64,000 bases of DNA from Gaiellaceae bacterium (GCA_036522595.1 DATDFL010000288.1:10414-74413), one strand, 5' to 3'. Counted from the stretch's first letter, positions 2 to 61,700 are shown. The notes: generated from the letters alone by a model not told the origin. Made by a program: numbers and translations.

Positions 2-3000
2 GCCTTCCACGAGGCCGCGCCCGTCGCGGTCTACGACATCGAGGCGTCGCCGCTCGTGAGCCGCCGCCTGGCGAAGGCGGCCGGCGCGAAGAGCGCTGCC
101 TTCGTGCCGCTCACCGTGGACGAGCGAGTGATCGGCGTGCTCGTCGCCGCGTGCACGAGCGAGAGGCGCGCCTTCTCGACGGAGGAGCTTCGCCTGATGC
201 AGGCGGTCGCCGGCGAAGCGGCAATCGCGCTCGATCGGACTCGCTCTGCGGCGGCTCTGGACGAGGCGCTCGCGCGCGAACGGCTCGTCGCCGAGATCTC
301 GCGCCGCGTGCGGTCGGTTCACGACCTCGACACCGTCACCCGCGTGGCCGTGACGGAGACCGGCCGCGCCCTGGGTGCGTCGCGCTGCTTCCTGCGGCTC
401 GGCGAGCCGGGAGAGCTTCCGATCCGGGCGGAGTGGTTCGCCGAAGGGCTCTCGCCCATCGGCGAGGACACCGTCGAGCGGCTGCCTGCCTCCAACCTCG
501 CGGCACGCGAGCGGCGGACGGTTGCGATCTCCGACGCGCGCGACTCCGCCGACCTGGACGATCCGCTGCTCGGCGGCAGGGAGGTTTTGGAGCAGCTCGG
601 CTCGCGTGCGGCGCTTGCGACGCCGGTGGTGGTCTTCGACCGGATGATCGGCGTGCTCGCGCTGCATCGCACGGAGCCGCGCCCATGGGCAGATAGCGAC
701 ATCTCCGTTGCGGAGGCCGTTGCGCACGAGATCGGCCTTGCAGTTCACTCGGCCGCGCTGCTCGAGGAGAACGAGCGCCGGCTCGGCGAGCAGGGCGCGC
801 TGTTGAAGGCCGCGCAGGTCGTCACCAGCGAGCTGGAGCTGAAGGCGGTCTTGCAGCGGCTGGTCGACGAGGTCGCCGGTCTGCTCCGCGCCGAGGCCGT
901 CGACTGCTATCTGCTCGACACCGAGCGCGGCGTGCTGCGCTGCGCCGCCGTCCACGGCTTGACCGAAGAGATGCTGGGCTTCGAGTTCCCCGCAGACCGC
1001 GGCCTGGCCGGCCGCGCGATCCGGCGAGGGCGTTCGGCGCTCGCGGACGACTACGCGCAGGTGCCCGAGACCGTGCCGCACGCCGCCTACGAGGGGTTTC
1101 GCAGCGCCGTCGTCGCGCCGATGCGCTGGTCGGGCGAGGTCAAGGGGGTGCTCGGCGTCGGCACGCGCGACGCGGGCCGCCGGCTCACGCACGCCGAGGC
1201 CGACCTGCTCGAGACGTTCGCGAATCTCGCCGCGCTCGCGCTGCGCAACGCGGAGAGCTTCGAAGAGCGCTCGCGCCAGGCGCGCGTGCAGCGTGGCTTC
1301 TACCGGATCGCCGCGGTGCTGGCGGAGCCGATCTCGCTGGAGGAGACCCTCGACGCGCTGGCCCAGGCCGCTGCCGAGGCCCTTGGCGGCGCGAGCGCGG
1401 CGGTGATCATGCCCGGCCCTGAAGACCTGAGCCTCGCCGGGCTTCATGGGCTGCCCGCGCCGCTGATCCGGTTCCTCGAGGACGGGCTCGCCGGGCCCGA
1501 CGACCCGCTACGAGCATCAGCCCGGAGGAGGCGCGTGCTCGCCGCCCCGAAGATCGCGGACGACGACCGCTTCGACGAGGACTGGCGTCGCATCGCGGAG
1601 GAGTGCGGGTACGGCTCGGTGCTCGCCGCTCCGGTCGAGAGCCCGCGCAGCGACGACGGCGGCCTCGTGCTCGTCTTCTTCGCGGAAGAGCGGCGCTTCG
1701 CGGACGACGACCTCGAGCTCGCGCGGAACCTGACCGCTGCGGCCCGCGGCGCACTTGAGCGCAGCGGCCTGTTCGAGGCCGAGCGGCGGCAGCGCGCCCT
1801 GGCGCAGGAGCTCGCCGAGACGTCCCGGATCCTCACCCCCGAGCTCGACCCGGCCGTCGTCCTGGACGAAGTCGTCCGCCGCGCGCCGAAGCTGCTCTCC
1901 GCAGACGCAGCCGTTCTTCGACTCCTCGAGGGCGACGAGCTGGCTCCCGGTGCCGCGAGCGGCGTCTCCGACGAGGCCGCGCTCGACGTGCGCCTGCCCT
2001 CCACCGCGAGGCTCGCCGGCGACGCGGTGCAGTCGCGAGGCCCGGTCGCGATCGCGGACGCCCGCGAGGACCAGCGCCTGCTGCAGGCCGACCCGGTCCT
2101 CGCCGCAGGCTACGCCGGCTACGCGGCGGCTCCGCTCGTCGGTCCGGAGGGCACCGTGCACGGCGTGCTCTCCGTCTACACCGAGGAGCCCAGGTTCTGG
2201 GCGGCCGACGAGGTCGACACGTTGGTGAGCTTCGCGCGCAACGTCTCGGCGGCGCTCTCGAGCGCCGAGCTCTACCAGCGCGTCGCCCTCGAGAGGGACC
2301 GCAGCGAGGCGATCCTCAAGAACATCGCCGACGGGATCGTGGCCGTCGACCGTGACGGGAAGGTCGTTCTCTGGAACGCCGCCGCGGAGGCGATCTCCGG
2401 CGTGCCGGCCGAGGAAGCGCTCGACCGCGCGCCGGCGGAAGTGCTGCAGCGCGAGCTCGAGTCGCCGGGCGACGCACCCAGCGGGGAGCGCCTCGTGTCG
2501 ATCCGGCGCGGCGCCGAGGAGATCTGGCTCTCGCTCACGGAGGCGGTGATGCGAGATCCGGCCGGCGCGGTCGCGGGCCGCATCTTCGCGTTCAGGGACA
2601 TCTCCGCCGAGCGCGTGGTCGAGCAGATGAAGCGCGAGTTCGTCTCGAACGTCTCCCGCGAGCTGCGCTCGCCGCTGACCTCCATCTACGGTTTCGGCGA
2701 GACGCTGCTCCGCGACGACGTGCTGTTCGGCGAGGAGGAGCGCGAGACGTTCCTCCGCTACATCACGTCGGAGGCCGGCCGGCTGACTGCGATCGTCGAC
2801 CGTCTGCTCGCGGTCGCGCGGCTCGACACCGGTGACCTGCAGGTGAACCTCGCAGCGACCGACGTGGGCGCCGTCGTCAGGGAGGTCGTCGGCACAGCGC
2901 AGTCCATCAGCGGGAGCGGACACGAGTTCGTGCTCGACCTGCCGCCGGAGCAGATCGAGGCCGACGCCGACCGCGACAAGCTGCGGCAGATCGTCACCGA

Positions 3001-3334
3001 CCTCGTGGAGAACGCGATCAAGTACTCGCCGGAAGGCGGCACGATCACGGTCTCGGTCAGCCGCCGCGAAGACGCGGTCGAGATCAGCGTCGACGACGAG
3101 GGCATCGGCATCCCGGAGTCCGAACGAGCCCGAATCTTCACCAAGTTCTACCGAGCCGAGTCGGAGGGGCGCGACCTCGCCAGCGGCGGCAGCGGCCTCG
3201 GCCTCTTCATCGCCAAGGAGCTCCTCGCGGCGATGCGGGGCCGGATCTGGGTGCGCCCTCGCGCCGGCAGGGGCTCGAGCTTTGTGTTCACACTCCCGGC
3301 GGCTGGGCAAGCACTACTCAGCGAGCGCGAGTAA
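2..3334 (+). CDS. multi-GAF / PAS sensor histidine-kinase-like protein; 5' end runs off the window and the H-box His is replaced by Arg
   Basis: The frame is open from nt 2 (first ATG at 56). The translation shows the tail of one GAF-like module plus four complete ones and a PAS segment (ILKNIADGIVAVDRDGKVVLWN). It also has a DHp H-box (FVSNVSRELRSPLTSI) and intact ATPase N/G1/F/G2 boxes (VENAIKYSPEGG, DDEGIGIP, FTKFYR, GSGLGLFIAKE). Confidence 0.85.
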   Translation, partial: AFHEAAPVAVYDIEASPLVSRRLAKAAGAKSAAFVPLTVDERVIGVLVAACTSERRAFSTEELRLMQAVAGEAAIALDRTRSAAALDEALARERLVAEISRRVRSVHDLDTVTRVAVTETGRALGASRCFLRLGEPGELPIRAEWFAEGLSPIGEDTVERLPASNLAARERRTVAISDARDSADLDDPLLGGREVLEQLGSRAALATPVVVFDRMIGVLALHRTEPRPWADSDISVAEAVAHEIGLAVHSAALLEENERRLGEQGALLKAAQVVTSELELKAVLQRLVDEVAGLLRAEAVDCYLLDTERGVLRCAAVHGLTEEMLGFEFPADRGLAGRAIRRGRSALADDYAQVPETVPHAAYEGFRSAVVAPMRWSGEVKGVLGVGTRDAGRRLTHAEADLLETFANLAALALRNAESFEERSRQARVQRGFYRIAAVLAEPISLEETLDALAQAAAEALGGASAAVIMPGPEDLSLAGLHGLPAPLIRFLEDGLAGPDDPLRASARRRRVLAAPKIADDDRFDEDWRRIAEECGYGSVLAAPVESPRSDDGGLVLVFFAEERRFADDDLELARNLTAAARGALERSGLFEAERRQRALAQELAETSRILTPELDPAVVLDEVVRRAPKLLSADAAVLRLLEGDELAPGAASGVSDEAALDVRLPSTARLAGDAVQSRGPVAIADAREDQRLLQADPVLAAGYAGYAAAPLVGPEGTVHGVLSVYTEEPRFWAADEVDTLVSFARNVSAALSSAELYQRVALERDRSEAILKNIADGIVAVDRDGKVVLWNAAAEAISGVPAEEALDRAPAEVLQRELESPGDAPSGERLVSIRRGAEEIWLSLTEAVMRDPAGAVAGRIFAFRDISAERVVEQMKREFVSNVSRELRSPLTSIYGFGETLLRDDVLFGEEERETFLRYITSEAGRLTAIVDRLLAVARLDTGDLQVNLAATDVGAVVREVVGTAQSISGSGHEFVLDLPPEQIEADADRDKLRQIVTDLVENAIKYSPEGGTITVSVSRREDAVEISVDDEGIGIPESERARIFTKFYRAESEGRDLASGGSGLGLFIAKELLAAMRGRIWVRPRAGRGSSFVFTLPAAGQALLSERE

Positions 3335-5441: not shown

Positions 5442-8400
5442 CTACAGAGGAATTACCGGAGTCGAGACGACTCCGAGCCGCGCCAGCAGCGCCTTCGCTT
5501 CCTTGGCTTCGGCGCTGCCGTCCGCGCCGCGTCTTTCCGCCAGTTGCGCCAGGGCGTCGAGGGTGAGCGCCAGCTCGTAGGTCTCGTCCTCTGCACGGGC
5601 GACGTCGAGGCTCCGGTGCAGCGCTTCCTCGGCGACTTCGAGATCGCCATGCTGCAGCAGCGCGTAGCCGCGCAGGCGGAGGACGAGGGCGTGTTGGAGG
5701 TAGCCGCTGCCCGTCTGCTCGATCTCGGCCAGTGTCTCGTCGGCGCGATGCAGCGCGCCTTCGGAGTCGCCCGCGAACAGGGCTGCTTCCGCGAGGCGGG
5801 TCTTCACCTCGAGGAGCAGGCTCCCCGCGCGGATCTCGTCGGCGGTCGAGAGTGCCTGTCCGAGGAGCTCGAGCGCGTCCCCCACCCGGCCCTCGCGCGC
5901 CGCCGTGCGGCCGAGGTTCGACAGCGCCGCCGTGGCGAGCAACCGGTGTCCCGAGGTCTCGAAGACCTCGCGCGCCTCTGTGAAGAGCTCGCCCGCCGTC
6001 GTCAGGTAGCCCTGGTCGGACTTGATCTCGCCGATGTTGCTCGTGATCGTCGCGGCGCCGACGACGTCGCCGATGCGCTCGCGCAGCGCCTTGCTCCGCT
6101 CGTAGCAGTCGAGCGCCTCGCGCCAGCGGCCTTCGTAGTACGCGTCCACGCCGAGGTTGTTGAGCGCGTTCGCCTGGCCGAGCAGATCGCCGATCTCCTC
6201 GTAGATCGGCAGCGCGATCCCGCGGAACGCCGCGCGCTCCGGGCTCCGGTTGGAGATGTACGCGTAGTGGAGCAGGTGGTAGGCGTGGGCAAGCGCGGGC
6301 AGATCGCCGACCTGGTTCGCCTCGTCGATGACGCGTCGGCACCACTCGGCGCCGGCGGCGAACTCGCCCTGCCGCACGCGCACTCCGGCGTACGCGAGCG
6401 AGAGCTCGAAGCGCATCCGCTGCTGCTCGGCCGGCTGCAGCGAGTCCAGCGATTGGAGCCCGCGGTTGTACCAGCGGAGCGCGGCCGAGTAGCGGCCGAA
6501 GCGTTCGCGGATGACGCCTTCCTTGTGCAGGAGCCGCGGGTGGCTTTCGAGCTTCCGTGCCTTCGAGTACGCCTCGGCCGCATCGGCATAGAGGCCGGCG
6601 AGCTCGCTCACGTCTCCGACCGACTCCCAGACGCGCGCAAGCTCCTCGGACGGCAGGTCGAGCTTCGGCGCGGCCCCGAGCGCGCGGCGGTAGAACGAGG
6701 CGGCTTCGACGTTGGCGAACTTCGCCTGCGCGCGCTCGCCCGCGACGAGGGAGTAGCGCCAGGTCTTGTCCACGTCGCCCGCGTGGGAGAAGTGCAGCGA
6801 GAGGAGCTCGGCGAACTCGCCGCGGCCTTCGTGCTCGATCCGTTCGTACGCCTCGCCGACCTTGGCGTGCAGCTCGCCGCGCCGCTTGTACGAGAGCCCC
6901 TCGTAAGCGGCGTCTCGGATGAGCGCGTGGCGGAAGCGGAAGGCGCCGGCCGCGTACGGGTCGCGCTCGATGAACTCCGTCAGCCGGTCCCAGGCCTGGG
7001 AATCCGCGGAGGCCTCCGGATCCTGCGCGAGGACGTCCGCGATCAGCTCTCCGCTGAAGGTCGCGCCGAGGACGGCCGCGTAGCGCAGCAGCGTCCGGTC
7101 GCCCGGCGGGAGCTTGTCGATCCGCGTCGCGACGACGGCCTCGACGCTCTCCGGCAGCGCCTCCTCCTCGGGCGCGCGCGAGGACACGACGAGCTCCTGC
7201 AGGAAGAGCGGGTTTCCGCCGGCCCGGTCGGCGATCGCGGCGACCTCGTGCTGGAGCATCCCGTCGGCAGCGGCGGCGCCGATCAGCTCGCGCGCCTCGT
7301 CGGCGGACAGCGGCTGGAGCTGGATCGTCATCGCCGGGATCGGCGGCACGCCGTCGGCCGCGGAGAAGCCGCCTTCGACCGGCCGCCGCGTCACGCAGAT
7401 CAGCCACGGCCGGGTCGGCACCTGGCCGCCCAGGTGGCGCAGGAGCTCGGACGACGCCTCGTCCATCCAGTGCGCGTCCTCCACGACGAGCAGCGTCGGA
7501 TCGGGCAGGAGCTTCGTCAGCAGGGTCTCCATGACGCCGTGCAGACGGGCGCGGCGGAAGGCAGGCTGCAGCTCGTCGACCTCCCGCGTCGCTTCGACCG
7601 GGAGGTCGAGGACCATCCCGACGAGCGGCAGCCACGGGACGAGCTCCGGATCGAGCGCTTCGACCTCCTCGCGGAGCCTCGTGAGATCCAGGAGGCTGTG
7701 GAGCAGCCCGCGGAACGCGAAGTACGGCGTCGAGGCCTCGTACTGCTCGCAGACGGCCGCGAGGGCGCGGAGGTCGGGCGCCCGCGTCTGCAGCTCTTCT
7801 ACGAGACGCGACTTGCCGAGGCCGGGCTCGCCGATCAGCTCGACCATGTTCCCGAATCCCATCCGCACGGGCCCGAGCGCCGCGGAGACGATCGTCAGCT
7901 CGCGCTCCCGGCCGACGAACGGCACGCGCTGCTCCGGAGCCTCCTCTGCAGGCGCCGTGACGGAGTGGACGTCGAGCGCCGTGACGAGCCCCTCGATCCC
8001 CTTGAGCGGGAACGGCTCGAGCTCGGTGGTCGCGAACGTGCTCCGGCAGCGTTCGAGGAACTCCGGGGTGGCGAGCAGCTGGCCCGGCTGCGCCTTGCCC
8101 ATCAGCCGCGCCGCCAGTGCGGCCGTCTTGCCGAGGATCGTGTACGTGCGCCTGAACCTGGCGCCGACCTCCCCTGCGAAGACCCGGCCGCGGCTGACCC
8201 CGATCCGTAGCGGCAGCCGGTGCCGGCCGGCGGCGATGCCGAGCACGGTCCGCAGGAGGCGCTCCTCGTCCTCGCCCTCGGTTCTCGGCGCCCCCGCGAC
8301 CAGGATCATCTTGACGCCGTCGCTGTCGATGTCGGTCTCGAGGAAGGTGACGCCGTGCTCTTCAGCCACGCGCTGCGCCGAGACGACGACCTCTTCGAGC

Positions 8401-9224
8401 GCTTCGCCCACAGCCTCCGCGCCCTCTGCGGCTAGCAGCGCGTCGACGCCGCCGACGTGGACGAACGCGACCGAAGCTTGGCGGTGCTCCGGCTCGGTGT
8501 CGCCGGCTTCGAGGTGACGGCGAACGCGCGCCGGCACAGAGGCCCCGAGGTCGAGGCCTTCCAGCGGCGGCAGCGGCTCGATTCCGGCGGGCCCGCCCGG
8601 TGCGGCCGTCAGATGGCGTCCGCCGCTGTCGGCCTCGCCGAACAACGCGTCCGGGAGGCGAGAAGCGGTCTCGTCGCTGACGAGGATCTCCCCGGCTTCA
8701 GCCGCGCTCTCCATCTCGACGGTCTTCGTGACACCGGGCCCCGCGAGCAGCAGCTCCCGGTGCGACTCCCCGACGAGGAAAAAGTCGTAGACGTCGCTGT
8801 GGATCCCGACGTGCATCTTCAGCGTCACCGGGCCGACCGAGGTCTGCGGCCGCCCGAGCTCTTTGAGGGCCGTCCTCATGCCGAATGCCGCGTCGCATGC
8901 CCGCTCCCTGTGGTCCTCGCCCGAGAAGAACAGCAGCAGCGCGTCGCCGCCGAACTTGAGCAACCCGCCGCCGAACGCGTACGCAACGTCGAGCAGGCGC
9001 GCGAAGACGAGGTTCATCACGTCCGTGACCTCCTCCGCGCCGAGCTTGCCCTTCGTGGCCAGCCGCTCCGACATCGCCGTGAAGCCGGAGATGTCCACGA
9101 AGGCAAGCGTCCCCTCGAGCTCGCGCCTGCGGGCGTCGGGAGCGTCCCGCAGCCAGTCGACGACGACTCGAGGGACGAACGGGGTGAGATCGACCGGCGG
9201 CGCGGTCTCAGGAGCCGCCATCAC
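5442..9224 (-). CDS. tandem class III nucleotidyl cyclase domains + AAA/STAND-type ATPase + TPR signalling protein
   Basis: CHD1 has LAFVDISGFT and KFGGDALLLFF. CHD2 has VAFVHVGG and RIGVSRGRVFAGEVG..ILGKTAALAARLM. The Walker A is GEPGLGKSRL, followed by about 500 aa of TPR-like helical repeats. Confidence 0.85.
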   Translation of the reverse strand: MMAAPETAPPVDLTPFVPRVVVDWLRDAPDARRRELEGTLAFVDISGFTAMSERLATKGKLGAEEVTDVMNLVFARLLDVAYAFGGGLLKFGGDALLLFFSGEDHRERACDAAFGMRTALKELGRPQTSVGPVTLKMHVGIHSDVYDFFLVGESHRELLLAGPGVTKTVEMESAAEAGEILVSDETASRLPDALFGEADSGGRHLTAAPGGPAGIEPLPPLEGLDLGASVPARVRRHLEAGDTEPEHRQASVAFVHVGGVDALLAAEGAEAVGEALEEVVVSAQRVAEEHGVTFLETDIDSDGVKMILVAGAPRTEGEDEERLLRTVLGIAAGRHRLPLRIGVSRGRVFAGEVGARFRRTYTILGKTAALAARLMGKAQPGQLLATPEFLERCRSTFATTELEPFPLKGIEGLVTALDVHSVTAPAEEAPEQRVPFVGRERELTIVSAALGPVRMGFGNMVELIGEPGLGKSRLVEELQTRAPDLRALAAVCEQYEASTPYFAFRGLLHSLLDLTRLREEVEALDPELVPWLPLVGMVLDLPVEATREVDELQPAFRRARLHGVMETLLTKLLPDPTLLVVEDAHWMDEASSELLRHLGGQVPTRPWLICVTRRPVEGGFSAADGVPPIPAMTIQLQPLSADEARELIGAAAADGMLQHEVAAIADRAGGNPLFLQELVVSSRAPEEEALPESVEAVVATRIDKLPPGDRTLLRYAAVLGATFSGELIADVLAQDPEASADSQAWDRLTEFIERDPYAAGAFRFRHALIRDAAYEGLSYKRRGELHAKVGEAYERIEHEGRGEFAELLSLHFSHAGDVDKTWRYSLVAGERAQAKFANVEAASFYRRALGAAPKLDLPSEELARVWESVGDVSELAGLYADAAEAYSKARKLESHPRLLHKEGVIRERFGRYSAALRWYNRGLQSLDSLQPAEQQRMRFELSLAYAGVRVRQGEFAAGAEWCRRVIDEANQVGDLPALAHAYHLLHYAYISNRSPERAAFRGIALPIYEEIGDLLGQANALNNLGVDAYYEGRWREALDCYERSKALRERIGDVVGAATITSNIGEIKSDQGYLTTAGELFTEAREVFETSGHRLLATAALSNLGRTAAREGRVGDALELLGQALSTADEIRAGSLLLEVKTRLAEAALFAGDSEGALHRADETLAEIEQTGSGYLQHALVLRLRGYALLQHGDLEVAEEALHRSLDVARAEDETYELALTLDALAQLAERRGADGSAEAKEAKALLARLGVVSTPVIPL

Positions 9225-9365: not shown

Positions 9366-12300
9366 GTGGCTCAAGCTGCGGCCGGCGCGGGCTTCAGGAA
9401 GGTGTGCCTGCGCCTTCTTCAATTGACGGTGGCGGGGCTTCTCGCCGTGGGCATCCTCGCCGGCGCGAGCGTCGGCGCTGACGGTTTTGACACGCAGAAC
9501 CAGAACTTCACCGTCAACCTCGGCCTCGGCAGCTCGAAGACGGTTCATCCGACGCTGCATCTCGACGCGCTCCCGCCCAGCGCTGACGTCCTGATTGCGC
9601 TCGACACGACGGGCAGCATGGGCGGCGCGATCACAGACGCGCGCACGGATGCGAACAGCATCGTCAACGACATCCAGGCGCAGATCCCGCACGCGCACTT
9701 CGCGGTGGCGGACTTCAAGGACTACCCCCAAGTCCCGTTCCAGGGGGTTTTCGGGATCGCCGGCGACTACCCCTGGCGCGTCGACCAGGACTTCACGGAG
9801 AACACGACCACTGCCCAGTGCGGCGACGGCACGGCGACCCCGATCGCGTGTGCGCTCAACGGTCTGACCGCTCCCTCGGGCAGCGGCGGTGACGGGCCGG
9901 AGGCCTACAACCGCGCTTTCTTCGAGGCGTACCACGACACCGGGCTGCATTGGACGCCAGGGGCGTCTCGCTTCATGGTCGTGCTCGGCGACGCACTGCC
10001 ACACGACGCCAACCTGGCCACTGACTTCCCCGACTGTCCGAACACCGCGCCGACCGATCCCGGGCCCGACGGCGTTCCCGGGAATGCGGACGACCTGCGC
10101 TCGGCGCCCACGCTGGCACAGCTCCGCGGAAACAACACGAATCTCTCGTTCGTCACTTACAACCAGCCGGCAGGCAGCCAGATCGCCAACTGCCACACGG
10201 CGCTCGCCCAGTTCACGGGTGGGACCGAGGTCGTCCACGGCAATGCCGACTCGTTGCGCAGCCAGATCGTCGCCCTGATCCAGGCCGCGGCAAAGCACGT
10301 CGACAAGCTCGACTTCAACATCACCGGGACGCTCTCGGATCACGAGACGCCGATCCAGAACGCGGCTTCCTGGTTCACCTTCGACCCACCGCTGCCGTAC
10401 GGACCGATCACGGCGCCCGCGGACATCAGCTTCGACGAAACGATCAAGGTGCCGGACGGCACACCGGCCGGTACGTACTACTTCCGGCTCGGCGCCGTGG
10501 CGGACGGCTCCGAGCGCGCCGTCCAGACGGTCACCGTCAACGTCACGAACACCGCGGTCAGCTCGGTGACGATGACCTCGGACGAGTCGACGGTTCCCGC
10601 AGGAATCAAGCAGGCGCCGTTCTCGTCGATCCCGTCATCGCGGCTTGCCTCCCTGACCCACGATCCGAACTCCGCGCCTGCCGGCTCCACGGCCCAGGGC
10701 TCGATCGCGCAGGGCTCGATCGCGCAAGGCTCCATCGCGACGGGCTCGATCGCGGTCGGCTCGATCGCGCAAGGGTCGATCGCGGTGGGCTCGATCGCCA
10801 CCGGCTCGATCGGGCTCGGCTCGACGGCGCAGGGCTCGATCGCGCAGGGCTCGATCCCGGGTGGAGCTGCCGTGCTGAGCGACGTCCTGCTCTCGCAGAT
10901 CCCGCTGTCCGGCGCGACGTGGGCGGACATCCTCAAGAACACGCCGTTCGCCAACCAGCCGCTTCAGGCTGTGTCGCTCGCCGACATCGCGACCTACAGC
11001 GTCCGCGACACGAGCACCGACAACAAGACTCCGTGGGAACGGCTGATGGCGCTGCCGCTCCGGCAGATGCCGCTGTTCACGACGCTGTGGCGCAACATCC
11101 CGCTCGGCGCGGTGTTGCTCGGCAACGCGCCGCTCTCATCGCTGCCGACGCCGCTGAAGCCCGACGGCACGGGGCGCTACCTTACCTGGGCCGACGCGCT
11201 GACGGCCAACGGCGGCAGCGCCACGGGTCTGAACCCTGCGACGAACACGGTCTTCGGCGTCGCCGTCGCCGGGCAGCTCGGCACGACGGCCGTCGGCTCG
11301 ATTGCTGTCGGCTCGATTGCCCAGGGATCGATCGCCCAGGGCTCGATCCGGGCCGACTCCACGGCCACCGGCTCGATCGCGGTCGGGTCGATCGACCTGC
11401 GGCTGACGAACCTCGCCTCGGTGCCGCTCGACCACGTGAGCCCGCTGGCGAGCATCGTCAACTGCACCGCGCTCGGCACGTGCACGGGCAAGACGCTGGG
11501 CGACGCGTCCGGGGCGAACGCGTTCCAGCCAGGTGTGACGCTGATCCAGCTGCTGAACGCGCTGCAGGCGCCATACGACACGAGGTTCATCTCGATCGAC
11601 GACCTCGCGCGGGCCATGCTCCCGCTGTCGGACTACCCGTGGGAGCAGATCCTGGTGCAGGGCCTCCAGGACGTCGCCGGCACCGGGCAGAACGTCCACT
11701 ACCACGTCGACTTCGACCTGGTCTGCTCCGTCGCGACGAGCTTCGGCGTCCACGTGAGCCTGCCGGCGGGCTTCTTCCCGGTCGCGGGAACGTCGACGTA
11801 TTCGTACGCCGGCGGCGCACCGGTCGCGGCGGCCAACCCGACCGGCCCGCCGAGCGACCCGGTCTGGACGATGGCGGGCGCGGGCCCGTGCGCGGGAGCC
11901 GGAGGCATCACTCAGCACGTCCGCCTCAACTTCCAGTCCTACGCGGGCCTCACCCTGGGCAGCCAGACCTCGAACGTCCAGGTCACCGTGAACGACGGCA
12001 GCTACGCGGCGAACGGCCAGGCCCCCGTGCTCGTGACGCAGAACTGGGAGCCGAACGACTCGCGCGACAGCGCGCCGACGATCGACAAGAACACGCTGAT
12101 CGTCGGGCACATCGCGACCTCGAGCGACACCGATTTCTTCCGCTTCCCGCTCGGGAACCTGGCGCCGAACACGAAGGTCGCCGTCTACCTCAAGGTTCCC
12201 GGCGACGGGACCGACCTCGACCTGGTGGTCAACAAGCCCGCACCGGCGGGCGTGCAGTCGAGCGCCCAGGGCTCGATCGCGCAGGGAAGCATTCCCATCG

Positions 12301-15300
12301 AGGACGTCGCGCCCGGCGTCGACAACTCGACCGGCGCGCTCCAGCCCGACGCGTCATCCGACCTCGCGGCCGGCTCGATCGCGCAAGGCTCGATCGCGCA
12401 GGGCTCGATCGCACAGGGAAGCATCTCGGCCAACCGCGGCTCCGTGAACGAAGTCGCGCAGATCGTCACGCATGGCGAGACCGGCGATGCCACGATCGGC
12501 GTCAGCGGCTACAACGGCGCGTTCAGCAACCAGCAGTACGTGCTGCGCGTCAAGGTCACGCCGCCGCCGGGGCTGCCGCCGTGCGATCCGATCACCGGCC
12601 TGAACACCGCGGCGGCCGGGACGCTGCCGGCGGTGACGTCGCTGCCGACGACCACGAAGGCGCTCTTCCTCGTCAATCGCCAGCGGCTGGCCGGCCTCTA
12701 CGGGGCGACGCGCACCGATGCGCTGATCAACTCCGACCCGTCGTCGCCGCTCAACGCGGTGGCGGCCTCGGTCGGGGGAGCAGTCCTGCCCGTCGACGGG
12801 AACGTGAACGTGCACAACGCCTACGTCACCTGGGACTCGAACCCGTGCAACGTCGAGTCTGCGAACGCAGTCGTCCGGTCGATCAACGACCTCGTCGCGA
12901 CCTACCGCACGCGGCTTCCGAACCTGAAGTACGTCGTCCTGCTCGGCACCGACACCGCCGTGCCGTCGTGGCGCCAGTTCGACCTCTCCAACGACTCGCC
13001 CGAGGTCGACGAGGCGAACGACCTCGCGTTCACGACGCGCAACTCCGCGGGGCAGCTCCTCACGAAGGGCAACGCCCTCTACGCGGCGGCCGCGCAGAAC
13101 ACGATCCTCACCGACGGCGCCTACGGTGCCTTCACCCAGCGCAACTGGCTCGGGCACGCGATCCCGCTTCCCGAGATCAGCGTCTCGCGCCTCGTCGAGA
13201 CGCCGGAGGACATCCTCGGACAGCTGAACCAGTACCTCGATCCGAGCGTGAACGGCCGGCTCGACCTGCATTCCGCGGTCACGACCGGCGACTCGTTCTT
13301 CGCGGACGGCGCGCAGGCCGCGGCGAACTCGCTCCTGACGCAGCTGGCGCCGCTGAACCAGACGACGCTGCTCCCGTCGATCTCGAGCTGGACGAAGCAG
13401 GACCTGCTCAACGACTACTTCAGCCTCAATCCGGTGCCCGACGTCGGTGCGCTCTGGGCGCACTACTCACACTGGCTCTCGCAGCCGGCAGGCGTTCCGG
13501 CCACGCCGACGCTCGCGGATCTCGTCTCTACCGGCGATGCGAACGCGACGCGCCGGAACGGGCAGCTCCTCTTCACCGTCGGCTGCCACAGCGGCCTCAA
13601 CGTGCCCGACCAGATCGCGTCGCTCGAGAACGGCGTGGTGTCGTCGGACGACCAGAAGCGGCTGCTCGACTGGGCGCAGGCCTACATGAGCTCGAAGACG
13701 GCGGTCTACGTCGCGAACACCGGCTATGGCTACGGCGACACGACCACGATCGACCTCTCCGAGCGGCTGATGGACCACTTCGCAGCCAACATCAACTCGG
13801 GTGGCACCATCGGCGAGCAGTGGGTGCGCGCGCTGCACCAGTACTACTCGGAGCCGGGGAACTACGACGTCCTCGACGAGAAGGTTATGGTCGAGGCGAA
13901 CATGTACGGACTGCCGTTCTACGGCTTCACGGGGAGCCCCGTGAACGTCCCGCAGGCGCCGACCCCGCCGGCAACCGTGGCCGACGGCAACTTCAGCACG
14001 GCGCATCTCGATGCGATCACCGCGAACGTCCAGCCGCAGAACCTGACCGACGGTTCCGGCCGCTCGCTGTTCGTGAACCAGGGCCATCCCGACGGCTCGA
14101 CGTTCCTCCAGGGCGGCGTGCCGCTGACGATGGGAACGCTCTCGGTCTTCTACCGGCCGGCGCAGCCCGAGATCTCGCGTGACGTCACCGTGCCGGGCAC
14201 GACCGCGAAGGGCGTGTGGATCCGCGCCCTGACGACGCACACGGTCAATGACGTGAAGCCCGTCAAGCCGTACCCGCTCGTGCGCTCGGGCGCGGACGCG
14301 CCGGCGAAGGACTACCCGAACATCTTCTTCCCGGCCACGATCGCGACCGTCAACCGTGACGCCTCCTTCGGCGCGGAGCACGACAACGTCGTCGTCAACC
14401 TCGGTCGGTTCTTCCCGAACGACACAGGGGACCACGGCAAGGAGCAGGTCGTCGACTCGGTCGGCCTCGACGTCGGCTACTCGAACTCGACCGACTGGAC
14501 CGCTCCCCAGATCACGCAGACCGGCGCAGTGGAGACCAGCGCCGGGCACTTCACCGCGTTCGTTCGCGTGACCGATGCTTCGGGCCTCCGCCGCGTGTCC
14601 GTGCTCTACAACGACGGGAACCCAGTCTGGACCGTCGTCCCGCTGACGCAGGCGGGCGGCGACCTCTGGACGGCTTCGTTCACGGCGACGAGCCCGATCG
14701 TCGTGGATTCCGAGGCGCAGGACAACGCCGGGATGGTCGGCTACAGCTTCAACAAGGCCGTCAACTTCCAGTCGGCCGTGGAGCAGGCCGGCTCGGCGCC
14801 GTCGATCCTGATCACGAACCCGCTTCCGGTTCCGTCCGGCACGTTCACCCTGAACCAGCAGGTGCCCACGAACTTCGTGTGCTCGTCGGCGCTCGGCGTG
14901 AGCAGCTGCTCGGGCGCGACCGACGGCGGCGCCTCCGTGCAGAGCGGCGGCCTGCTCGACACGAGTCGGCCCGGCACGCACACGTTCACGGTCACGGGCA
15001 CCGATCTCGCGGGCCATTCGGCGACGAAGAGCGTCAGCTACGTCGTCAACTTCGTCTTCGTCGGCTTCCAGCCGCCGGTCGATGCGCCGCCGATCCTCAA
15101 CACCGTCAATGCCGGTAGCACGGTGCCGATCAAGTGGACGCTCGCGAATGCCGCCGGCACGTTGTACGCCAACCTGGACGCCGTCCAGTCGCTATCGTCG
15201 AGGCAGATCCGGTGCCCAAGCGAGAACACCGACCCGGCGGGCCAGGACGTGCCCATCGGGACGACCGACTTCCTGAAGATCACCAACGGGACGGTCTTCC

Positions 15301-15404
15301 AGTTCAACTGGAAGACGAGCACCGCCTTCCGGAACACCTGCCGCCGGTTCTACATCCACCTGTCCGACGGCTCGACGCCGTACACCGACTTCAAGTTCAG
15401 GTAG
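9366..15404 (+). CDS. giant secreted multidomain protein: VWA, GSIAx pentapeptide arrays, PPC domain, clan-CD (gingipain/caspase-like) peptidase-like region, Ig-like and PxKF-like C-terminus
   Basis: GTG start behind GGAGAGAGG, with signal peptide LLAVGILAGASVGA. The VWA MIDAS-like motif is LIALDTTGSMGG. The PPC-like motif is WEPNDSRDSAPTI..GHI..SSDTDFFRF. The peptidase-like region has KYVVLLGTDTAVPSW, TDGAYG, ISVSRL, AHYSHW and FTVGCHSG. The C-terminus has VGFQPPVD..VNAGSTVPIKWTL. Confidence 0.85.
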   Translation: MAQAAAGAGFRKVCLRLLQLTVAGLLAVGILAGASVGADGFDTQNQNFTVNLGLGSSKTVHPTLHLDALPPSADVLIALDTTGSMGGAITDARTDANSIVNDIQAQIPHAHFAVADFKDYPQVPFQGVFGIAGDYPWRVDQDFTENTTTAQCGDGTATPIACALNGLTAPSGSGGDGPEAYNRAFFEAYHDTGLHWTPGASRFMVVLGDALPHDANLATDFPDCPNTAPTDPGPDGVPGNADDLRSAPTLAQLRGNNTNLSFVTYNQPAGSQIANCHTALAQFTGGTEVVHGNADSLRSQIVALIQAAAKHVDKLDFNITGTLSDHETPIQNAASWFTFDPPLPYGPITAPADISFDETIKVPDGTPAGTYYFRLGAVADGSERAVQTVTVNVTNTAVSSVTMTSDESTVPAGIKQAPFSSIPSSRLASLTHDPNSAPAGSTAQGSIAQGSIAQGSIATGSIAVGSIAQGSIAVGSIATGSIGLGSTAQGSIAQGSIPGGAAVLSDVLLSQIPLSGATWADILKNTPFANQPLQAVSLADIATYSVRDTSTDNKTPWERLMALPLRQMPLFTTLWRNIPLGAVLLGNAPLSSLPTPLKPDGTGRYLTWADALTANGGSATGLNPATNTVFGVAVAGQLGTTAVGSIAVGSIAQGSIAQGSIRADSTATGSIAVGSIDLRLTNLASVPLDHVSPLASIVNCTALGTCTGKTLGDASGANAFQPGVTLIQLLNALQAPYDTRFISIDDLARAMLPLSDYPWEQILVQGLQDVAGTGQNVHYHVDFDLVCSVATSFGVHVSLPAGFFPVAGTSTYSYAGGAPVAAANPTGPPSDPVWTMAGAGPCAGAGGITQHVRLNFQSYAGLTLGSQTSNVQVTVNDGSYAANGQAPVLVTQNWEPNDSRDSAPTIDKNTLIVGHIATSSDTDFFRFPLGNLAPNTKVAVYLKVPGDGTDLDLVVNKPAPAGVQSSAQGSIAQGSIPIEDVAPGVDNSTGALQPDASSDLAAGSIAQGSIAQGSIAQGSISANRGSVNEVAQIVTHGETGDATIGVSGYNGAFSNQQYVLRVKVTPPPGLPPCDPITGLNTAAAGTLPAVTSLPTTTKALFLVNRQRLAGLYGATRTDALINSDPSSPLNAVAASVGGAVLPVDGNVNVHNAYVTWDSNPCNVESANAVVRSINDLVATYRTRLPNLKYVVLLGTDTAVPSWRQFDLSNDSPEVDEANDLAFTTRNSAGQLLTKGNALYAAAAQNTILTDGAYGAFTQRNWLGHAIPLPEISVSRLVETPEDILGQLNQYLDPSVNGRLDLHSAVTTGDSFFADGAQAAANSLLTQLAPLNQTTLLPSISSWTKQDLLNDYFSLNPVPDVGALWAHYSHWLSQPAGVPATPTLADLVSTGDANATRRNGQLLFTVGCHSGLNVPDQIASLENGVVSSDDQKRLLDWAQAYMSSKTAVYVANTGYGYGDTTTIDLSERLMDHFAANINSGGTIGEQWVRALHQYYSEPGNYDVLDEKVMVEANMYGLPFYGFTGSPVNVPQAPTPPATVADGNFSTAHLDAITANVQPQNLTDGSGRSLFVNQGHPDGSTFLQGGVPLTMGTLSVFYRPAQPEISRDVTVPGTTAKGVWIRALTTHTVNDVKPVKPYPLVRSGADAPAKDYPNIFFPATIATVNRDASFGAEHDNVVVNLGRFFPNDTGDHGKEQVVDSVGLDVGYSNSTDWTAPQITQTGAVETSAGHFTAFVRVTDASGLRRVSVLYNDGNPVWTVVPLTQAGGDLWTASFTATSPIVVDSEAQDNAGMVGYSFNKAVNFQSAVEQAGSAPSILITNPLPVPSGTFTLNQQVPTNFVCSSALGVSSCSGATDGGASVQSGGLLDTSRPGTHTFTVTGTDLAGHSATKSVSYVVNFVFVGFQPPVDAPPILNTVNAGSTVPIKWTLANAAGTLYANLDAVQSLSSRQIRCPSENTDPAGQDVPIGTTDFLKITNGTVFQFNWKTSTAFRNTCRRFYIHLSDGSTPYTDFKFR
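10683..10862 (+). repeat. in-frame 15-bp tandem repeat, 12 units (GSTAQ GSIAQ GSIAQ GSIAT GSIAV GSIAQ GSIAV GSIAT GSIGL GSTAQ GSIAQ GSIPG)
   Basis: GGCTCGATCGCGCAG-type 15-mers lie head to tail, read directly from the sequence. Confidence 0.95.
11280..11399 (+). repeat. in-frame 15-bp tandem repeat, 8 units (GTTAV GSIAV GSIAQ GSIAQ GSIRA DSTAT GSIAV GSIDL)
   Basis: Same 15-nt period and the same GSIAx unit as the array at 10683. Confidence 0.9.
12255..12299 (+). repeat. in-frame 15-bp tandem repeat, 3 units (QSSAQ GSIAQ GSIPI)
   Basis: Same unit. It ends in GSIP like array 1. Confidence 0.8.
12372..12431 (+). repeat. in-frame 15-bp tandem repeat, 4 units (GSIAQ GSIAQ GSIAQ GSISA)
   Basis: Same unit, with three nearly identical DNA copies in a row. 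Confidence 0.9.
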
Positions 15405-58789: not shown

Positions 58790-61700
58790 CTATTGCCCGG
58801 TGAAGCGATCGAGGATGTTCTGCGTGATGCGCTGGGTCGCCGCGTTGGTGTAGTTGTGGAAGCAGCCGCAGTAGCCGTCGTTGTAGCCGTCGTCCACGCC
58901 CCAGCTCCACTGGATGGTTCCGGCGGAGAAGATCATCGCGCCGCTCGGGTGGTTCCAAAGCACCGCGTCAGACCAGACGTTGGTCGCGTTGCCGTCACCG
59001 GCGGGCACGAACGAATGGCCGACGGTGGTTGTGCCCGCGGGCTCGAATCCCGCCCACTGTGAGAGGTTCTGCGTGGTCGAGGCCCGCGAGTCGAACTCGT
59101 AGCCGATGACGCCCGGCAGCGCGTTCTGCCCCGCGCCGCTCGTGACGACGCCGCTCGTGCCGTTCCCGGTGTAGTTGGCGAGGCCGGTGCCGGCGTAAAT
59201 CCAGCTCGAGTTGTTGGTGACGAGGTACGGCCGGTCGTTGGCCACGCCCTCGAGCATGACGCCGCCGATCTGGTTCTCCGGCTGCTGCGGCGTCAGAAGC
59301 CGCCATTCGAAGGTGGTGGAGCCTGCCAGCGCGTTCTTGTCGCAGTGGATGCGGCGATTGGCCGTGCCGCTCGCGTTCGGAGCCCAGGTGATCCGGTAAT
59401 AGAAGTTGTTTGCGCTGAAGAGGGCCATGTCGACCCCGCTTGAGATGCCGTTCAGCAGGTTGTTGCGCATGTTGTCGGAGTAGTACTCGTCGTGGCCGGT
59501 GTTCATGAAGACCCGGTGACCGTTGAGCAGGGTCGGGTTCGACTCCAGGTCGACCGAGGTGACGTACGTGATGTCGTAGCCCTTCGACTCCAGGAAGCGG
59601 AGCATCGGGAAGTCCCAGTTGAAGAAGGCGCCGGCGCCGTCGGAGGCGGGCTCGCCGTCGTACGGACGGTCGAAGGAGACCGTGTAGGCGCGGCCGCCGG
59701 TGCTGTTGCCGGTGACGTCGTTGAAGCGGCCGTAGAGGTCGTAGCCGACGTTCTGGTTGTCCGAGCCGCCCCAGAAGTTGTAGGCCTGCCACGTCGTGAC
59801 GTCCATCGAGTAGACGATGGCCGCCGTGCTCGAGTCGTCGCGGACGACGAAGGTCATGTAACTCTCGAGCGTCTGGCCGTCGAGGCGGCGCAGCTTGACG
59901 ATGTAGTTGCCGGTCGTCCACGTCGTCGGGACATTGAGCGTGTAGCTCGGTGTCCAGCTGCACTCCGTGAGGCCGAAGTTCGGGTCGTTCTGCGTTGTCA
60001 CCTGCGGGCAGGTCGCCTGGTGGACGCCGTTCAGCGGGCCGACGTGCTGCATGAGGCGGCCGCCGCAGGACGGGGCGCACGAGGTGCCGTCCGGGTTCGT
60101 GCCCTGCGGGTACCAGCCCATCCGGTAGATGTCCATCGTGTACTGCGCGTTCGACGAGAGCGAGACCATGAAGTTGATCGAGCCGCCCCTGTTGACGCTC
60201 GTGGCGCTCGCGTAGCCCTCGATCTCGTGGTTCGTCGCCTTGTGATCGATGTCGAGCTGCCAGCTCGTGGTGCCCTGGTTGCGGTTCTCGAGCACGATCG
60301 GGTTCGCCGGCGGGACGGCCGGAGTGACCGGCGGTGAGGGTGCGGAGTCGGGGCCGGTGCCGATCGCGTTGATCGCGGCGACCGTGAATGTGTACGTGGT
60401 GCCGTTCGTCAGGCCGGTGACCGTGAAGCCGGTCGCTGCGCCCGGCGTGGTGACCGGAGTCCGCGCGGAGCCACCGACGTACGGCGTGATGCGGTAGTTC
60501 GTGATCGAGCTGCCGCCATCCGAGCTCGGGGCGCTCCAGGTCAGCGCGACGCCGCTATCGCGGGGCAGGCCGCTGACGCTGGTCGGCGCACCTGGCACCG
60601 CCGGGGGCGCAGGCGTTACTGGGTTGGAGGGCTGTGACTCTGCGCCGTAACCGGACGAGTTCGACGCCGCGACGGTGAACGTATAGGTCGTCCCGTTGGT
60701 GAGGCCGCTGACTGTGTAGCTCGTCTGCGTCGAGCCGGTCGCGATCGGCGTCTGCGCAACGCCGTTGATGTACGGCGTGACGCGGTAGTTGGTGATCGGG
60801 CTCCCGCCGTCGGACGCAGGCGCAGTCCAGGTGAGCGAGGCAGACTGGTTTCCGGCCGTCGCGTTCACGCCGCTCGGCGGGCCCGGAGGCGGCGCGGGAA
60901 TCGGCGTGACAGCATTGGAGGGCGAGGAGTCGGGTCCGGGTCCGGCCGCGTTCTGCGCCGCGACGGTGAAGGTGTAGGTCGTCCCGTTCGTCAGCCCGCC
61001 GAACCGGAAGCTCGTCGCCGTCGAGCCGGTCGGCAACGTCGTCTGCGCGACGCCGTTGACGTACGACGTGACCCGGTAGCCGTTGATCGGGCTGCCGCCG
61101 TCGCTCGCTGGTGCATCCCATGTCACCTGCGCGGCGCCGTCGAGCGGCGACGCCACCACGTTCTGGGGCGCGCTGGGTGGCACGGCGCCCGCCGGCGAGA
61201 CGGTGGCGACCGAGACGTCGTCGAAGTCGTTGTTGCTCAGGCCCTCGTTCCAGAGCTGGACGATCTGCAGGTTGGCGGTGTGGCTGTAGTTGCCCGTCAA
61301 GCCCCACGCCGGCTGGGACACGCCGTTCAGGTAGAGCCGCGCCGCGCCGTTCGCCGCGCCCGTGTACTGGACGCCGACCTGCACCCACGTGCTCGCGGCG
61401 GCGCTGTTGGTGCCGGTGAAGATCTCGGTGCTGGCCCCGGCGCTGTTGTACGGGTAGAAGAGGAACCCGTGGCGCGTGCCGTCGTACATCAGCAGCCACA
61501 TGTTGATGCTCGACGAGCCGTCGCGCGCCTGGGCGACCGTCACCACGCGTGAGCCGGTGCCGGGGCGGATCCAGAAGGTCGTGACGCTGTCGGAGACCGA
61601 CCCCGAGAGGACCTTGACGTCGTAGGCGTACTGCGTCTCGAGCGTTGCGATCCGGAGGCCGTACCCGCCGGTGTGGGCCGCAGCCGCGACAACCGTGCTC

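Follow-up and report, generated by a model that had tools for sequence, protein, structure and literature searches.

The 64,000-nt stretch of Gaiellaceae bacterium analysed here (GCA_036522595.1 DATDFL010000288.1:10414-74413; its full length is called the window below) contains a large gene for a secreted multidomain protein in which a GSIAx pentapeptide is repeated head to tail in four separate arrays. The first-pass annotation of this DNA had described in-frame arrays of 12, 8, 3 and 4 units in one gene, and this description was confirmed by Tandem Repeats Finder and translation. Period-15 arrays were called at 10683-10856, 11292-11348, 12258-12286 and 12372-12418, and all four were translated in frame within one open reading frame (ORF). 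ORFs over the arrays on the reverse strand and in other frames (AIEP... and others) were dismissed as artefacts of high G+C, and no further 5-periodic array was found elsewhere in the 64-kb window in any frame. With up to three mismatches, the 15-mer GGCTCGATCGCGCAG occurred 35 times in the window as compared with 17.9 ± 4.2 times in shuffled sequence (0/100 shuffles reached 35), and 16 of the 35 matches lay in register inside the four arrays.

Array 1 reads GSTAQ, GSIAQ twice, GSIAT, GSIAV, GSIAQ, GSIAV, GSIAT, GSIGL, GSTAQ, GSIAQ and GSIPG. The count of eight for array 2 includes three degenerate units, the first and two internal ones (GTTAV, GSIRA and DSTAT), with seven counted as clean from nt 11295. 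GSIP stands at the end of two arrays, 1 (GSIPG) and 3 (GSIPI), as had been noticed earlier, and the IPL/APL-rich segments between the arrays proved to be really periodic: the 5-residue period runs on after arrays 1 and 2, and a cryptic fifth array at aa 561-595 shares the x-x-(I/L/M)-P-L pattern with the arrays of distant relatives. SQIPL, which stands just after array 1, is the array unit of one distant homologue (P0077). Judged from sequence, the inter-array segments appear to be periodic relics of the same pentad.

Table 1 Features of the pentad-array gene and of other genes in the window.
Feature	Position (nt)	Strand	Basis
Whole gene, secreted multidomain "PxKF domain-containing protein", 2012 aa	9366..15404	+	only long ORF over the arrays
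vWA / integrin beta I-like domain, limits approximate	9540..10360	+	PF25106 VWA_4, weak match at aa 77-119
Array 1, 12 units GS(I/T)Ax, aa 440-499	10683..10862	+	Tandem Repeats Finder and translation
5-residue period past array 1: GAAVL SDVLL SQIPL	10863..10907	+	reading of translation
Cryptic ancestral-type array, aa 561-595: MALPL RQMPL FTTLW RNIPL GAVLL GNAPL SSLPT	11046..11150	+	translation, AlphaFold2
Array 2, 8 units, aa 639-678	11280..11399	+	Tandem Repeats Finder and translation
5-residue period past array 2: RLTNL ASVPL	11400..11429	+	reading of translation
Beta-sandwich domain, aa ~777-891	11694..12038	+	AlphaFold2 strands (fragment residues 383-497), pLDDT ~90
PPC-like (pre-peptidase C-terminal) beta sandwich, aa ~893-1066, with ~68-aa loop insertion	12042..12563	+	AlphaFold2
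Array 3, QSSAQ (degenerate) GSIAQ GSIPI, within PPC loop	12255..12299	+	Tandem Repeats Finder and translation
Conserved middle of PPC loop: EDVAPGVDNSTGALQPDASSDLAA	12300..12371	+	family consensus
Array 4, GSIAQ x3 and GSISA, within PPC loop	12372..12431	+	Tandem Repeats Finder and translation
C25-like (gingipain-fold, clan CD) peptidase domain	12648..13910	+	Foldseek, AlphaFold2 pLDDT >90
His1366	13461-13463	+	invariant in 73 sequences
Cys1407 (GCHSG)	13584-13586	+	invariant in 73 sequences
C-terminal PxKF domain, aa 1900-2012	15063..15401	+	NCBIfam NF038114
Adenylate/guanylate cyclase, AAA_16 and TPR protein, divergent neighbour	5442..9224	-	Pfam domains
1728-aa ORF, at least six fibronectin type III domains, C-terminal DMFA2_C (N,N-dimethylformamidase beta-subunit-like)	58790-63976	-	domain scan
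1092-aa sensor histidine kinase, five GAF domains and one PAS domain	56-3334	+	domain scan

The protein collection contained an entry identical to the window protein (P0001) and 79 further homologues (80 in all). The name "PxKF domain-containing protein [Gaiellaceae bacterium]" is carried by a 99.9%-identical cluster member, and the PxKF domain itself was recognised clearly (E 2e-24, 86.1 bits against a cut-off of 35). The N-terminus resembles a Sec signal peptide, as RK..R precedes a run of hydrophobic residues (..ASVGA/DG). The VWA_4 match was precomputed for many homologues as well, and the family profile matched integrin beta I-like domains weakly (E 0.002).

Residues 395-1590 were modelled by AlphaFold2 (AF2) from a 73-sequence alignment, with a mean predicted local distance difference test score (pLDDT) of 78 and a predicted TM-score of 0.71. 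The model contains, in order, a region of many short strand and helix elements, a beta sandwich, an 8-strand sandwich and a well-modelled alpha/beta domain. Foldseek matched the first sandwich to Ig-like pilin and adhesin domains. The second is probably a PPC domain, as read from the model and from EPND...YVLRV motifs picked by eye; the PF04151 PPC profile gave 26.4 bits, against a threshold of 25.9, for the homologous domain of a relative (P0083), and no match for the window domain even after removal of the loop. This loop, which carries arrays 3 and 4, is inserted between strands 4 and 5 of the sandwich, and its 24-residue middle has the family consensus IPxEDxxxxVDNSxxALxPDTLAD and low AF2 confidence. 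The top Foldseek match of the model in the PDB was the gingipain RgpB (4ief_D; E 5e-10, TM 0.53). The Peptidase_C25 profile (PF01364) was precomputed for the relative P0080 and gave 26.1 bits against a cut-off of 23 for P0132, and the Pfam scan of the window protein gave no match to it. With its caspase-like alpha/beta fold and its conserved His and Cys, the gingipain-fold domain looks like an active clan CD peptidase of Actinomycetota that Pfam misses in the window protein.

We searched Pfam with the whole protein at E<=1, with array 1 alone at E<=10 and with array-rich (GSIPL) relatives. None of these queries matched PF00805, PF13599 or PF13576, no Pfam leucine-rich repeat (LRR) model was matched, and no repeat family in Pfam or NCBIfam covers the GSIAx unit. 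The only Pfam repeat model that responded was PF01469 (Pentapeptide_2), which stayed below threshold at 12.5-17.4 bits against a cut-off of 26.4 and responds because Gly occurs at every fifth residue. The earlier statements that the unit differs from the classical A(D/N)LXX pentapeptide family and could not be recognised as a named family were therefore upheld. Searches of the PDB with the array region of the window clade, by sequence or by profile, gave no match, a PDB search with profile A3 gave noise alone, and literature searches on PxKF proteins and on the unit strings brought up nothing pertinent. A profile of array-1 variants (A2), run against 5.8 billion proteins, was uninformative because the model was too short and low in complexity; it drew 871 word-sharing candidates and none at E<=1e-3, the family itself included. 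The array-region search also drew unrelated-looking proteins with acidic pentads (P0186, P0214, P0226, P0232, P0233 and P0254), such as GDVPD x54, GDDAN x116, GEVKE x44 and GDMSD x43, which probably match through the Gly at every fifth residue alone.

In the AF2 model the arrays are coil at pLDDT 24-48, next to domains at 80-97, and only the last units of array 1 are higher: its first ~7 units have 24-41 and its last ~5 have 52-70. Array 2 has 34-48 and the loop with arrays 3 and 4 has 28-42. The cryptic array has 60-84, and the inter-array region forms many short strand and 3-10-helix elements at 70-90, while the arrays themselves are unmodelled. Because the two large arrays are multiples of four units, complete coils of a quadrilateral beta-helix had been suggested at first. 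This suggestion was not supported: the arrays are modelled as coil, unit counts in orthologues shift by single units, and arrays 3 and 4 have just 2-5 units and sit in the loop of a beta-sandwich domain. No pentapeptide repeat protein was among the top Foldseek matches of the model. Disordered models together with an invariant copy number had been named in advance as one outcome that would refute the first-pass proposal; we found that no repetitive fold was modelled, but the copy number was not invariant among relatives, though it was not strain-variable either.

The four arrays were found at the same sites and with similar counts in ~70 orthologues down to ~40% identity, array 1 having 9-17 units and array 2 having 5-9. 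The family comprises 204 relatives in a set with one genome per species, and the array-bearing module forms 327 clusters at 50% identity. Within one protein the four arrays share the same unit, and this unit changes from lineage to lineage: GSIAQ in the window clade, GSIPA in the majority, and GSIAA, GAIPA, GSIPG, GGIPG, GSIAG, GSVPV, GSIPV, GSTPV and GSIP(M/I) in others, together with GSTP-, GATP- or GGTP-(F/Y/W) in an aromatic clade. Position 1 is Gly, position 2 a small residue, position 3 beta-branched and position 4 Pro or Ala, and position 3 is Thr where position 5 is aromatic. In array 1 of the aromatic clade (P0055, P0058-P0062, P0066 and P0067), Trp residues stand five units apart in every protein, at units 6 and 11 or 7 and 12, despite the differing position 2. 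Irregular units are kept by position across ~45%-identical orthologues, for example GSIGL near the end of array 1, and array 4 ends with GS(I/V)S(A/Q)NRG in nearly all orthologues.

When orthologues differ in length at the four arrays, they do so by multiples of 5 aa in 68% to 94% of cases, usually by one or two units and without a preference for 20 aa. Compared with the window protein, the array-1 region is longer by 5 aa in 21 orthologues, equal in 14 and shorter by 10 aa in 5. Array 3 tends to be longer where array 4 is shorter (r = -0.54), and the loop as a whole keeps its length (median 68 aa); this trading of units at a constant total fits length-critical arms better than coils. The idea that the arrays pair as hairpins (1 with 2, 3 with 4) was rejected, because the lengths in the pair 3 and 4 vary in opposite directions and those in the pair 1 and 2 show hardly any correlation (r = 0.24).

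The codons of the units tell how the arrays are kept alike. Averaged over 38 genes, the same residue is written with the same codon in two units at a probability of 0.54, where 0.50 is expected from the gene's own codon usage; in the window gene the probability was 0.65 against 0.57. Unit-by-unit codon tables showed that synonymous sites vary freely between units. It follows that the arrays are old and that selection on the peptide, rather than recent slippage, keeps their units alike, and much of the 15-mer similarity in DNA arises because identical peptides are combined with a strong codon bias. Recent DNA homogenisation as the main cause of the uniformity was rejected on these codon-identity figures.

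Two lineages show a whole set of units changing. At 86% identity, locus L012 (GAIPA) differs from locus L021 (GSIPA) by Ser to Ala at position 2 in 22 of 26 units. The Ala codon is GCG in 20 of these 22, including sites with AGC in relatives, and Tyr is retained at units 8 and 10. Such a footprint in the codons points to templated conversion from unit to unit, also across the 1.5 kb that separates arrays. In the aromatic clade position 2 moved from S to A to G in every unit with mixed codons (GGG, GGC and GGA), the F/Y/W pattern being kept, a shift suggestive of directional selection acting in parallel. Least well accounted for in this family is why the units within a protein are so uniform; the uniformity could come from a single reader of all units, from ladder stacking in a solenoid or from additive selection on a bulk property of an arm.

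Distant relatives in Acidimicrobiia, Dehalococcoidia, other Thermoleophilia and Nocardioides carry more arrays in the same region, with units such as GSIPL, GAIPL, GAVPL, GSIPV, NSIPL, DSIPV, RSIPL, ASLPV, ANVPL and SQIPL. The consensus of the superfamily is x-[SA]-[IVT]-P-[LVI], with hydrophobes at positions 3 and 5, and the GSIAQ of the window would be a rare derived form in which the Pro and the position-5 hydrophobe were both lost. In some relatives (P0132, of 3075 aa, P0083 and P0086, and loci L047, L067 and L068) the GSIPL units number as many as 79, spread over 14 arrays, or form an unbroken run of ~29. A match to FlrP at E 3e-7 was obtained with such arrays from P0086. FlrP is a flagellar LRR beta-solenoid of Vibrio (PDB 8z5u; bioRxiv 10.64898/2025.12.04.692373), whose 20-residue coils consist of four pentads, GNLNI SQTPI KKLPK GLDVG. 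When 120 within-unit permutations were compared with FlrP as a control, the native order and its rotations scored 31-37 bits, the I/L swap 27-28 and all others at most 17. In addition, the junction units GSIDL-xxTPL resemble GNLNI-SQTPI of FlrP and mimic the LRR signature. No such similarity was found for the window arrays; the inter-array profile of the window clade (A4) gave a hhalign probability of 0.2% against FlrP and noise alone against the PDB. AF2 of the GSIPL relative P0083 from a 15-sequence alignment was poor overall (pLDDT 46, arrays 30-47), and for this reason it does not decide if arrays of the ancestral type are folded. From these sequences the pentads plausibly descend from LRR-like coils.

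Our preferred reading, held tentatively and at somewhat less than an even chance, is that the arrays are conserved, selected and probably flexible pentad arms of calibrated length derived from LRR-like pentads. What the analysis established is the anatomy of the arrays, their conservation, selection at the peptide level, insertion and deletion of whole units and low model confidence. From these observations we infer flexibility and a role as tethers or arms. The arrays would then be a trait conserved at the protein level in a family of large secreted proteins of vWA / PPC / gingipain-like (C25-fold) type from Gaiellaceae and related Actinomycetota. They would descend from x-S-I-P-(L/V) pentads, which occupy this part of the protein in distant relatives and persist as relics between the window arrays. 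They would most likely be extended, flexible and non-globular arms and not a rigid beta-helix. Arrays 1 and 2 may bracket an inserted IPL-rich domain, and arrays 3 and 4 may be the two arms of the 68-residue PPC loop, projecting its conserved tip beside the peptidase. Selection would hold the units alike and move the whole set together in each lineage, helped at times by templated conversion between units.

Several observations weigh against flexible arms. There is the likeness of the GSIPL-type arrays to a solved LRR solenoid. Conservation of the units also far exceeds that of ordinary linkers, Gly at position 1 being conserved at 90% or more; 20% of their residues are Ile, and irregularities (GSIGL, and Trp at units 6 and 11) are kept by position. 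These traits of the units would be better explained by a structure that is ordered or specifically recognised. Low pLDDT is no proof of disorder, as AF2 can fail on perfect repeats and new folds, and the 5-residue period passes unbroken into flanks that AF2 does model.

One possible interpretation of these points, which we consider unlikely but a serious contender, is an ordered pentad beta-solenoid missed by AF2. It would run on into the IPL-rich region and be either a homogenised LRR or a helix like that of pentapeptide repeats, each 20-residue coil being built from four pentads. The FlrP match of P0086, its loss in all permutations but rotations and the I/L swap, and the junction units that mimic the LRR signature all speak for such a fold. 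So do the hydrophobes at positions 3 and 5 of the superfamily, with Thr at 3 when 5 is aromatic, the strong purifying selection and positional conservation of the units, and the pentad period carrying on into the modelled flanks. However, the window arrays are low-confidence coil despite a good alignment, and the P0083 arrays are no better, though in a model that is poor overall. The position-5 hydrophobe is lost in the window clade (Q, A, G or S), the window arrays and inter-array profile are unlike FlrP or any other PDB chain, and there is no Pfam pentapeptide or LRR match. Moreover, unit counts change singly, and arrays of 2-4 units in a loop are unable to form coils alone.

The units could instead be multivalent short linear motifs read by one partner, an interpretation we regard as distinctly unlikely. 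The most obvious reader would be the gingipain-like peptidase in cis (autoprocessing into fragments, as in gingipain polyproteins), the alternative being a modifying enzyme or receptor, and unit and partner specificity would co-evolve. An intact His/Cys dyad in a gingipain fold, invariant in 73 sequences, is present in cis, and the arrays lie where domains meet or in a loop beside the peptidase. The units are uniform in each protein and switch together, as in the S to A to G change of position 2 through different codons with F/Y/W kept, which is the outcome expected of selection by one reader of every unit. On the other side, no modifying enzyme is conserved beside the gene. Known C25 enzymes cleave after Arg or Lys, but the units contain no charged residue. 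Universal Ser/Thr O-glycosylation was rejected as a general explanation, and neither it nor phosphorylation can be a universal reading, because the GAIPA and GGIPG lineages have no Ser or Thr. If flexible arms were under directional selection for some bulk property, all units would shift together too.

Upstream of the peptidase gene lies the divergent cyclase, AAA_16 and TPR gene, which contains two stretches of cyclase catalytic domain according to Pfam. The two genes adjoin each other in at least 61 of 80 related loci (L001-L080), usually divergently and at 31-77% identity, and the loci sharing the pair come from Gaiellaceae, Acidimicrobiia, Dehalococcoidia and Nocardioides, in two phyla. 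By gene order, the large peptidase gene and the cyclase-AAA_16-TPR gene thus form a conserved pair or module. A more far-reaching combination, which we rate as a long shot, is a hitherto unrecognised structural or recognition repeat, a homogenised LRR with a true 5-residue period, whose ~27 units in four arrays would be read by a single partner, for example the peptidase in cis, and would hence switch together in each lineage, with the STAND-like cyclase-AAA-TPR neighbour completing a two-gene signalling or conflict module of Actinomycetota and Chloroflexota.

The first-pass annotation had also suggested that the exposed protein could vary in length between strains in 5-aa steps. The step size stands, as shown by the orthologue lengths above and by P0099, a metagenomic copy 99.8% identical to the window protein, from whose array 1 exactly six units (30 aa) are missing, GSIGL among them; either slippage produced a real allele here or the assembly collapsed the repeat. 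Hypervariability between strains was largely refuted. Among full-length members of three clusters at 90% identity or more, counts were identical in 7/8 (the window's cluster), 7/7 and 4/4, apart from one unit substitution. Contingency repeats, in which slipped-strand mispairing of near-identical 15-mers varies the exposed length, would account for the recurring exact 15-mers, the six missing units in one of the eight near-identical copies and the whole-unit differences among orthologues, but they are very improbable in view of the identical counts, the scrambled synonymous sites, the irregular units kept by position and the origin of the sole variant in a short-read metagenome assembly, where repeats may collapse.

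Tandem pentads tend to be classed either as beta-helices of the pentapeptide-repeat type or as junk linkers, and the GSIAx case fits neither. Here the unit is under strong selection at the peptide level, identical across four separated arrays, and, in an unusual pattern of concerted switching driven by selection, rewritten as a set in different lineages. The array-bearing family is large and spread over two phyla of mostly uncultured soil bacteria, in a region of the protein that has no curated domain model. Deciding if the pentads are springs, a new solenoid or sites of cleavage or recognition would help to annotate giant secreted peptidases by the hundred, and might show by what means an enzyme of gingipain fold is controlled outside Bacteroidota. 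Such a decision would also offer a clear natural case in which selection, and not homogenisation of DNA, drives concerted evolution.

Among known systems, the gingipain (peptidase C25) polyproteins are similar in being very long, secreted proteins whose gingipain-fold His/Cys domain is flanked by Ig-like or adhesin-like domains. The window protein differs from them in coming from another phylum, in having a PxKF domain in place of the C-terminal domain of the type IX secretion system, and in falling below the Pfam C25 threshold; gingipains, in turn, are not known to carry pentad arrays. The PF01469 repeats of mycobacterial PPE-MPTR proteins share the Gly at every fifth residue, but the scores of 12-17 bits stay under the cut-off of 26.4, and both the consensus and the protein context are different.

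Pentapeptide repeat proteins (the PF00805 clan; MfpA, Qnr and Rfr) form a right-handed quadrilateral beta-helix with four pentads per coil. The GSIAx arrays share with them a tandem 5-residue period, a fixed aliphatic position surrounded by small residues and a large number of units, and the A-N-V-P-L units of a distant relative (P0075) read like A(D/N)LXX. In contrast, the arrays of the window family have no profile match, carry Pro or Ala at each fourth position, are short (2-12 units) and broken up by other domains, receive no beta-helix from AF2 and have counts untied to 4-unit coils. Elastomeric pentapeptides, such as VPGVG of elastin and GPGGX of flagelliform silk, have Pro-Gly turns and disordered elastic behaviour. 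They resemble the present arrays in their pentapeptide period and in the combination of Gly, Pro and a beta-branched hydrophobe (I-P-A-G-S in the majority unit of the family); our arrays, too, are predicted to be non-globular and tolerate insertion and deletion of whole units. They differ in that the window family has no obligatory Pro-Gly turn and far shorter arrays, and that the window variant has Ala for Pro. Bacterial 20-residue LRRs, as in proteins of the YopM/IpaH type, have coils of the pattern LxxLxL / xxTPI / xxLPx and form a curved solenoid with a parallel beta sheet. FlrP is the closest likeness of this kind, since the GSIPL arrays of distant relatives align to its four-pentad coils, but the similarity is limited to those relatives and the period here is 5, not 20. 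Taken together, the sequence comparisons place the GSIAx arrays in no described repeat family and would make them a variant of tandem pentads of the LRR or pentapeptide type.

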